Below, one piece after another: positions 7,206-8,508 of a DNA stretch of 11,556 nucleotides. The notes under the pieces were generated by a model. It worked only from the letters and a program-made list of their open reading frames with translations. It was not told the origin of the DNA and did not search any database. This DNA comes from a virus (Duplodnaviria; Heunggongvirae; Uroviricota; Caudoviricetes): IMG/VR virus record IMGVR_UViG_648276659_000002, positions 1 through 11,556 of that record; one strand, 5' to 3'. The position numbers and the translations under genes were made by a program. How positions within the stretch are numbered: position 1 is the stretch's first letter; each line of letters begins with the position of its first letter.

Positions 7206-7372
7206 TTGACCAAAATCGAAGTTACGAACAAGAAAGCGTCGAGCGAGCTTTAACGTGCGCTAACTGCGGTCAGAAGCTGCATGTGCTGGAAGTTCACGTG
7301 TGTGAGCTCTGCTGTGCAGAACTGATGAGCGATCCGAATAGCTCAATGTACGAGGAAGAAGACGATGGCTAA
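7202..7372 (+). CDS. ninF: NinF (CxxC zinc-ribbon-like)
   Basis: GTG 7202 overlaps the ninE stop (GTGA) with AGGAAA upstream. Product [27 protein letters not shown]... matches lambda NinF as recalled. Confidence 0.78.
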
Positions 7373-7931
7373 ACCAGCGCGAAGACGATGTAACCGTAAA
7401 AGAGAAGATTTAACTGTTAAAAGGATATTTGAGTTACTAAGTTTCGATAAATCTACCGGGGTATTTAGATGGAAAGTTCCCACTCAGGGAAGGATATCAT
7501 TAAATAGTATTGCTGGAACTTTTGATTCCAACGGTTATTCAATGATCATGATAGATGGGCGTAGATATAAAACTCACGTCTTAGTTTTTTACATAACTCA
7601 TAATCGTTGGCCTGCTGGTCAAATTGACCACGTTAATGGAATTAGGACCGACAATAGGCCAGAAAATTTAAGAGAATGCCTGCCAATAGAAAATTCAAGA
7701 AATATAAGGATCCGAAAGAATAGCAAATCAGGTTGCAGAGGAGTTACTTGGCACAAACGACAGAAAAAATGGAATGTTAGGCTAGGTTTCCATGGCAAGA
7801 GTAAACACTTCGGATGCTTTGATGATCTGGAGTTAGCGGTACTAGTTGCTGAAGAAGCCCGAGATAAGTATTACGGTGATTTTTCCGGCAACGAAAGGAG
7901 CACTTATGCGAATCTATCGAAGGAAATGTAA
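7365..7931 (+). CDS. HNH-AP2 endonuclease, copy 2, fused to the first codons of ninG
   Basis: 188 aa. Starts MAKPARRRC in GC-normal sequence, then switches to AT-rich DNA encoding the HNH core (H..V...DH.NG...DNR..NLR) and an AP2-like segment. Overlaps the ninF stop by 8 nt and the ninG start by 26 nt. Confidence 0.8.
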
Positions 7932-8508
7932 ATGTTGCAATGAATGGTTTATACCAAAATATCAAAATCAATATTGGTGTAATGAGATTTGTGGAACCAA
8001 GATAGCACTCGAACGACGAAGCAAAGAACGCGAAAAAGCGGAAAAGGAAGTAGAGAAGAAACGACGACGAGAGGAGCAGAAACAGAAAGATAAACTTAAG
8101 ATTCGAAAACTCGCCTTAAAGCCCCGCAGTTACTGGATTAAACAAGCCCAACAAGCCGTAAACGCCTTCATCAGAGAAAGAGACCGCGACTTACCATGTA
8201 TCTCGTGCGGAACGCTCACGTCTGCTCAGTGGGATGCCGGGCATTACCGGACAACTGCTGCGGCACCTCAACTCCGATTTGATGAACGCAATATTCACAA
8301 GCAATGCGTGGTGTGCAACCAGCATAAAAGCGGAAATCTCGTTCCGTATCGCGTCGAACTGATTAACCGGATCGGGCAGGAAGCAGTAGACGAAATCGAA
8401 TCAAACCATAACCGCCATCGCTGGACTGTCGAAGAGTGCAAGGCGATCAAGGCAGAGTACCAACAGAAACTCAAAGACCTGCGAAATAGCAGAAGTGAGG
8501 CCGCATGA
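7906..8508 (+). CDS. ninG: NinG (Rap-like recombination protein)
   Basis: ATG 7906 with strong RBS AAAGGAG. Product from ...[19 protein letters not shown]... to ...RNSRSEAA is collinear with lambda NinG as recalled. The first about 30 codons are AT-rich and diverged. The track start at 7846 would overlap the HNH gene. Confidence 0.85.

Follow-up and report, generated by a model that had tools for sequence, protein, structure and literature searches.

The stretch of DNA analysed here, called the window throughout, comprises 11,556 nucleotides (nt; positions 1 to 11,556 of the IMG/VR virus record IMGVR_UViG_648276659_000002) and is the early-right region of a lambdoid prophage: its open reading frames (ORFs) and their Pfam matches include a CI-like repressor, replication genes, ninB, ninE, ninF, ninG, ninH, a phosphatase and a Q-like gene. 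The queried stretch of the window is 100% identical to Escherichia coli MS 196-1 (NZ_CP146681.1). Our subject is the 5′ end of ninG (rap), where an HNH gene of the homing endonuclease type lies within the coding sequence and is followed by a restarted ninG, termed ninG′, with an alternative, AT-rich 5′ end that we call the patch. Three distinct HNH-AP2 ORFs are present in the window, and the one in this ninG-associated cassette is copy 2. The features of the locus are as follows.

7160–7372, plus strand: ninF (Pfam NinF, E = 3.6e-12), with 96% identity to lambda up to 7393; its TAA (7370–7372) overlaps the frame opened by ATG 7365 (ATGGCTAA).
7352–7356, plus strand: GAGGA, a Shine-Dalgarno-like motif 8 nt upstream of ATG 7365, conserved with lambda and putatively the original ribosome-binding site of ninG.
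7365–7393, plus strand: ninG stub, 29 nt from the beginning of lambda-type ninG (MAKPARRRC plus AA), which read in frame into the endonuclease body; lambda alignments put the left junction after 7393.
7365–7931, plus strand: HNH-AP2 homing-endonuclease-type ORF of 188 amino acids (aa), with HNH_3 at residues 68–107 (nt 7566–7685) and an AP2-like region at residues 123–171 (nt 7731–7877), from Pfam, an AlphaFold (AF2) model and a fold search.
7394–7989, plus strand: foreign block of 596 bp, 37% GC, standing in for 64 bp of lambda-type ninG (codons 10–31), from alignments and an empty-site construct.
7895–7900, plus strand: AAGGAG, a predicted Shine-Dalgarno sequence inside the 3′ end of the endonuclease ORF, with a 5-nt spacer to ATG 7906.
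7906–7989, plus strand: patch, the alternative ninG 5′ end, 84 nt or 28 codons, 28.6% GC; the tail of the endonuclease ORF extends over its initial 26 nt.
7906–8508, plus strand: ninG′ (rap), 200 aa, a chimera of patch and lambda-type body that matches Pfam NinG and is named 'recombination protein NinG' in RefSeq genomes.
7990–8508, plus strand: lambda-type ninG body.

Window positions 7030–7393 align with phage lambda (NC_001416) in one continuous stretch of 364 nt, 350 of them identical, which spans ninF and the first 29 nt of ninG and breaks off after 7393, inside ninG codon 10. Homology to lambda is back at 7990, and 600 of 611 positions are identical over 7990–8600. Together with the translation of lambda NinG (lambdap68), this alignment confirms the statement of the first-pass annotation that the endonuclease ORF starts with the lambda NinG N-terminus, MAKPARRRC. 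An artificial empty site, made of the window flanks and the 64 bp of lambda at about NC_001416 42461–42524, matches HNH-free E. coli alleles end to end and in a single piece (97.5–97.6%), so the junctions are placed correctly; alignment with lambda ninF–ninG and with HNH-free alleles, the check which that annotation had recommended, fixes them at 7393/7394 and 7989/7990. The right junction falls at the conserved TGTGGAACC (Cys-Gly-Thr) codons. Base composition agrees with the shift from GC-normal to AT-rich DNA described earlier, with 37.1% GC in the insert (7394–7989) and 28.6% in the patch (7906–7989) against 50% in the flanks (Fisher p = 2e-7). The annotated NinG of lambda starts one Met earlier (MMAKP; ATGATG, lambda 42429–42431); that codon is ACG in the window (7363) and GCG in the Shiga toxin 1 (Stx1) phage AU6Stx1, and the second ATG alone remains in cassette-bearing alleles.

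A discrete foreign block with a sharp compositional boundary is also what a transposable element, an insertion sequence or transposon, would leave behind. A repeat search around the block, however, found no flanking direct or inverted repeats, no terminal inverted repeats and no target-site duplication; the block has no transposase, the HNH gene being its only ORF, and 64 bp of the target were replaced, not duplicated. We consider such an insertion extremely improbable. A scan for promoter-like sites and plus-strand terminators found neither in the block, which therefore lies inside the transcript of the early-right (nin) operon.

That the ORF is an HNH endonuclease wedged into the 5′ end of ninG is borne out by its Pfam HNH_3 match (E = 4.4e-11; 42.7 bits against a cut-off of 24.8) and by the position of the junctions at codon 10. 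An alignment of homologues shows no variation at the catalytic-motif columns D88, H89, N101 and N110. The AF2 model has a mean pLDDT of 84.6 and is confident save at residues 2–11 (below pLDDT 50) and 182–188, both predicted to be disordered. In a Foldseek search of the Protein Data Bank (PDB), the N-terminal DNA-binding strands and the HNH core find their best match in I-HmuI (PDB 1u3e; probability 1.0, 98 columns, 19% identity, E = 6.5e-3), and model residues ~123–171 superpose on the AP2 domain of AtERF1 (rmsd 1.3 Å, 51 columns, probability 1.0), the fold match on which the AP2-class assignment of copy 2 rests. Sequence searches of the PDB returned nothing useful for the HNH protein or NinG′.

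Homologues of the protein, down to 30% identity, begin a few residues ahead of 'LL.Y.P.TGVFRW' (near residue 14) and end soon after 'ARDKYHG.F', so the first ~13 residues of the ORF and the last ~10, which overlap ninG′, are add-ons. The HNH body (38.5% GC) brings no start codon or ribosome-binding site and continues the reading frame of the first 9 2/3 codons of lambda-type ninG. The ninG ATG at 7365 is the sole ATG, GTG or TTG that lies in frame ahead of the conserved N-terminal domain, the next starts being M60 and M62. Because ATG 7365 is the only usable start and the GAGGA motif is retained, the HNH gene has taken over the initiation signals of ninG.

The second half of the arrangement likewise matches its first description, in which ninG restarts at 7906 behind a strong ribosome-binding site with a diverged, AT-rich N-terminus before becoming lambda-like. 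The patch is 40–48% identical to lambda, against 93–100% downstream, and NinG′ is lambda-identical from GTKIALERR on, save for a few substitutions. NinG′ matches Pfam NinG (PF05766) at 6e-85 over profile positions 5–192 of 193, that is, over its full length, and alignment to lambda NinG shows that the N-terminal cysteine pattern CxxC...CxxxC, with its Cys ligands, is kept in the patch.

Deleting 7394–7931 gives an in-frame hybrid, MAKPARRRC-KCCNEWF, whose N-terminus aligns well with the mEp213-type NinG (MAKPARRKCKICKEWF), as would be expected if RNA or protein splicing, of an intron or intein, restored one NinG. This too is scarcely credible, since Rfam gives no match to group I or II introns, or to anything else, at a threshold as loose as E <= 1; the insert is taken up by the 567-nt ORF, with no space for a ribozyme core; the HNH ORF has a stop codon, and ninG′ lies in a different frame with its own Shine-Dalgarno sequence and ATG. 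The same MRI(S/Y) start is moreover used in L004, an HNH-free contig discussed below.

Separate probes for the HNH body and the patch were used to survey 5,426 complete E. coli genomes. The HNH body was found at 564 places in 538 genomes (~10% of the complete E. coli genomes), and the patch probe gave identical numbers, an agreement by number and not place by place. A lambda-type 5′ end without interruption was counted 872 times, in 834 E. coli genomes; with 564 sites occupied, this puts the occupancy of lambda-type sites at ~39%, and presence or absence of the cassette at this one defined site is polymorphic among otherwise homologous genomes. Within the phage collection neither the HNH body nor the patch occurs alone; the same 4 records have both, in the Stx1 phages AU6Stx1 and SH2026Stx1, where they are annotated 'HNH endonuclease' and 'NinG'. 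The patch core is present in 51 viral and 7 metagenome contigs, and all 57 that have upstream sequence carry stub, HNH gene and patch. Among database proteins, 464 from E. coli and Salmonella are near-identical to the HNH protein.

Across the 57 viral and metagenome contigs the cassette is 98.8–100% identical, while the ninG body ranges over 78–99% and the left flank is either ninF-type (91–98%) or unrelated. The element is thus more conserved than its flanks and stands in divergent backgrounds. Nearly all cassette copies share the patch at 100% identity (a single mismatch in L036), and the stub is 100% identical in the colinear copies except L015 (one substitution) and L012 (indel shift). The endonuclease ORF is intact in 60 of 61 colinear copies, and its variable sites, 14 nonsynonymous to 12 synonymous, suggest mild purifying selection. 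Two copies look degenerate: in L012 a 1-nt indel breaks the colinear HNH reading, and L066 has a deletion (about 3533) equivalent to window 7982–8264, inside ninG′. In many copies, those of the Stx1 phages among them (AU6Stx1, L001 1–2500; also L012, L061, L064 and L066), ~2.8 kb of unrelated AT-rich DNA takes the place of window 7251–7351 (the 3′ part of ninF), so that just 13 nt of the original DNA precede the stub ATG. The segment contains repeated TTTCTA units and, on the reverse strand, an ORF of 590 aa; with this segment the HNH ORF is open further upstream and is annotated from a GTG.

A copy in the Salmonella prophage L007 records how the unit may have moved. It differs from the window by 7 mismatches over 7328–8045 and by 15–30% outside this tract, and it consequently carries ~66 nt and ~56 nt of lambda-type flank besides the block. 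These flanks imply that the unit was first in a lambda-type ninG and then passed into the Salmonella allele by crossovers in homologous flanks, a pattern that fits what would be expected from homing with co-conversion.

Such a pattern has to be weighed against passive spread, in which the cassette would be an inactive or domesticated HNH passenger of single illegitimate origin, distributed by ordinary homologous recombination and clonal lysogen expansion (O157:H7) with ninG left uncut. The nin regions of lambdoid phages are notoriously mosaic (PMC2629481), and the counts are inflated by the many O157:H7 and O111 strains, closely related to one another, among the 538 genomes. Constraint on the ORF is weak (14:12), one copy (L012) is frameshifted, and occupied and empty sites are both still common. 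Against this, the ORF is intact in all but one of the colinear copies, and the window copy retains the conserved catalytic columns; the cassette keeps 99–100% identity between E. coli and Salmonella backgrounds while divergence in their flanks reaches 22%, and the short background-specific flanks in the shared tract are the signature expected of break-induced conversion. We judge a purely passive module to be rather unlikely.

Several NinG bodies bear the MRIY-type N-terminus of the patch. One variant, P0023 (MRISRRKCKCCKEWF...), is found on three contigs from three sequencing runs (L004–L006), where the upstream neighbour is an unrelated 74-aa ORF and not an HNH gene. DNA homology between L004 and the window starts at 7905, and the two differ at 7 of 84 nt in the patch (92% identical), which is likewise AT-rich in L004, against 104 of 504 nt in the remaining gene (p = 0.006). 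Phage contigs of 38.7% GC have a native NinG starting MKKPVRRKCKICCEWFIPKYPNIYWCNPEH (MKKPVRRKCKICCEWFIPKYPNIYWCN...), again with no HNH gene upstream, and Xenorhabdus- and Photorhabdus-type NinGs resemble the patch type. NinG N-termini vary naturally (MRKIRRRC, MRKVRRRC and others), so the MRIYRRKC of the patch is within the family range. From these comparisons, the most fitting reading of the patch is a natural allele end, from a divergent ninG, that was carried with the endonuclease gene, and not a purpose-built recoding; by its composition it comes most probably, like the HNH gene, from a low-GC lambdoid lineage. The first-pass annotation had proposed a homing cassette carrying a diverged replacement for the disrupted segment, and this stands in so far as HNH gene and patch are tightly linked and more conserved than their flanks, while the idea of a cassette-specific recoding falls to L004–L006 and the 39%-GC phages. 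The refuting case that it had named, HNH-free relatives with the same AT-rich ninG 5′ region, is in part provided by these three contigs.

Searches for further sources of the patch were largely negative. Neither its exact 35-mer nor a degenerate motif had a match among species-representative genomes, E. coli and Salmonella being the only hosts named for the patch, and a protein search with the 40-aa patch peptide returned short E. coli fragments only. The 74-aa upstream ORF of L004 had no relatives in viral contigs, and no close relative of the L004 NinG body was found, the nearest being ~85% identical. A likeness between 'YANLSKEM' in the HNH tail and 'YANLPKKM' in the upstream ORF of L004 was considered as a remnant of the donor gene and rejected, since homology begins at 7905 and the likeness arises only because both ORFs run, in one frame, into the opening 26 nt of ninG′. 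Directly 3′ of ninG in L004 (3604–4731) lies a 375-aa ORF whose first ~175 residues are HNH-AP2, 30–35% identical to the window copies, and whose remainder aligns with the Q-like/DUF1133 protein of the window from about residue 8, so that here an endonuclease runs in frame into a neighbouring nin-region gene. With only 30% identity, it was rejected as a relocated copy 2.

Other phages carry the nearest HNH homologues as free-standing genes, and in the contexts checked none has ninG beside it. The closest one outside the cassette, P0004 (44% identical; L071 1033–1927), directly follows and overlaps a T7-type endonuclease I gene on a T7-like contig. That enzyme resolves Holliday junctions, and NinG/Rap, too, is a junction-specific nuclease; the adjacency may well be coincidence.

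We favour, with moderate confidence, the explanation that a free-standing HNH-AP2 homing endonuclease gene (HEG) has settled in the 5′ end of ninG in a block derived from a low-GC lambdoid phage, that it has spread by homing with co-conversion, and that the occupied allele is immune. The donor would have been a low-GC lambdoid phage with the HEG just upstream of a divergent ninG, and the patch would be the 5′ end of that allele, taken along as flanking DNA. At the left junction a one-off illegitimate join would have placed the HEG body, lacking its own start, in frame at codon 10 of a lambda-type ninG, and at the right junction a homologous crossover at the conserved TGTGGAACC codons would have completed the replacement. 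The unit would then have spread among the lambdoid prophages of E. coli and Salmonella, including Stx phages, by cutting HEG-free ninG during lytic co-replication, with repair from the occupied allele co-converting short flanks. The recognition site lies plausibly in the replaced 64 bp, and the occupied allele would be immune because these 64 bp are swapped for a sequence only 40–48% identical and the site is split. The lambda segment holds a GC-rich TGCCGGG 8–14 nt past the left junction that is absent from the patch, and AP2 domains are reported to prefer GC-rich sites (PMC10448857).

A variant of this scheme separates the patch from immunity. The endonuclease could be active while its site is destroyed by the insertion alone or lies elsewhere, in ninF or deeper in ninG, and the divergent 5′ end could be hitch-hiking donor DNA that keeps ninG translatable. 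In favour of this, the patch exists at 92% identity without an upstream HNH gene, patch-like N-termini are native in low-GC phages, the Salmonella tract has lambda-type flanks on both sides, and free-standing HEGs of T4 often cut away from their insertion site and co-convert flanks (PMC2988022). Yet the patch is almost invariant, is never apart from the HNH gene in the E. coli, Salmonella, phage and viral-contig data, and the replaced 64 bp are the only part of lambda ninG missing from every occupied allele. We hold a patch with no role in immunity to be possible, if doubtful.

Several observations weigh against the favoured explanation as a whole. The patch of L004–L006, standing without an upstream HNH gene, is independent of the HEG, which leaves its role in immunity conjectural. 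The co-occurrence in E. coli is one of equal counts. The AP2 score of copy 2 is 22.2 bits, under the curated cut-off of 33.3, and the Foldseek E-values are weak, at 6.5e-3 or worse, despite probabilities of 1.0. The 14:12 ratio comes from few sites and speaks for mild constraint only. No donor HEG with a native N-terminus was found, the next relatives being at most 47% identical, and the mosaic pattern around the cassette can also be produced by ordinary lambdoid homologous recombination.

A bolder form of the homing explanation makes the replacement of a gene's 5′ end the element's way of life. Cleavage of lambda-type ninG would fall near codon 10, and the invariant left junction (behind TGTAA, 7393) would be the fossil of that break, joined illegitimately to the HEG; the element would be expressed only when correctly inserted, as it needs the start codon of its target, and would bring a cleavage-immune substitute N-terminus. 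It would act as a weapon between co-resident lambdoid and Stx prophages when polylysogens are induced, driving conversion of the nin–Q–stx region. We regard this as unlikely; that the left junction may mark the original break is speculation.

The other two HNH-AP2 ORFs of the window pass the AP2 Pfam cut-off. Copy 1 (5624–6318) is open from 5716, including the conserved N-terminal domain ('KKPIDHDELLSTLSYDSETGIFKW...'), and its frame has no ATG, GTG or TTG before TTG 5875. A 55-aa ORF in another frame starts at ATG 5624, right after the stop of the 626-aa primase/helicase gene, and crosses an A8 run at ~5714–5722, so copy 1 is either a frameshifted pseudogene or expressed through slippage. Directly 3′ of its stop, 6317–6344 form a hairpin with a 10-bp stem and T-runs on both strands, like a bidirectional terminator. 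Copy 3 (10064–10576), downstream of the Q-like gene, encodes 170 aa from its own ATG, is above both Pfam cut-offs and is only 39% identical to copy 2; the three copies are thus distinct family members and not recent duplicates. The cassette itself lies ~1.5 kb upstream of Q in the window, and in AU6Stx1 ~1.7 kb upstream of the Shiga toxin genes.

HEGs are known to enter conserved coding regions while host function is kept: Aeh1 nrdA is split by mobE, and T4 gene 39/60 is a further case, with the host protein made as two polypeptides. The ninG gene instead stays in one piece, with an alternative N-terminal segment substituted in full. HNH-AP2 proteins form a recognised class of HEG (PMC1524935, PMC10448857), and its phage members (the class of Magnani et al. 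2004; the 'IPA-HNH' HEGs of Barth, Dunham & Seed 2023, PMC10448857; the RB49/RB43 ORFs, PMC1524935) share with the ninG element an I-HmuI-like HNH core with a C-terminal AP2 domain (a predicted one in the ninG element), a small AT-rich gene, presence/absence polymorphism and a mosaic boundary at or within a conserved phage gene. The ninG element differs from them in lacking a start codon of its own, for which it uses the resident ATG, and in an AP2 score below the cut-off, with the call taken from the fold match. I-HmuI, from Bacillus phage SPO1, is the best structural match of the N-terminal strands and HNH core but is intron-encoded and has other C-terminal DNA-binding modules.

Co-conversion of flanks by free-standing HEGs is documented in T4, and the examples there (SegB, SegF, SegG and MobE; PMC2988022, PMC2330249, PMC2790892) are likewise intron-less HEGs beside their target gene that carry short donor flanks along, so that occupied and empty genomes differ in neighbouring coding sequence. 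They are, however, GIY-YIG or other HNH proteins of lytic T-even phages, encoded by separate intergenic genes with their own initiation signals, whereas the ninG element lies inside a coding sequence of a temperate phage and has replaced the 5′ end of its host gene. A comparable arrangement is found in the lambdoid (P22-like) phage epsilon34 (PMC2629481), where codons from the start of a resident early gene lead in frame into an HNH HEG; this HEG belongs to another HNH lineage and locus, and a rebuilt copy of the displaced gene is not described there. In the literature we found no paper describing an HNH gene in ninG.

The cassette is an example of a known element type, widespread and with an instructive architecture, and its HEG is probably active. 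It shows a selfish gene entering a coding sequence without destroying it, by taking over the initiation signals and supplying a foreign N-terminal segment that is predicted to be functional. For annotation, the first nine residues of the protein labelled 'HNH endonuclease' are ninG's, and the NinG of these prophages is a chimera. Should the enzyme prove active, wild-type lambda (96–98% match to the window flanks) would contain the empty target of a natural homing endonuclease, and the two would offer an unusually tractable temperate-phage system in which to measure homing and co-conversion. Homing-driven conversion so near Q and stx could also add to the mosaicism of the region that controls toxin expression.

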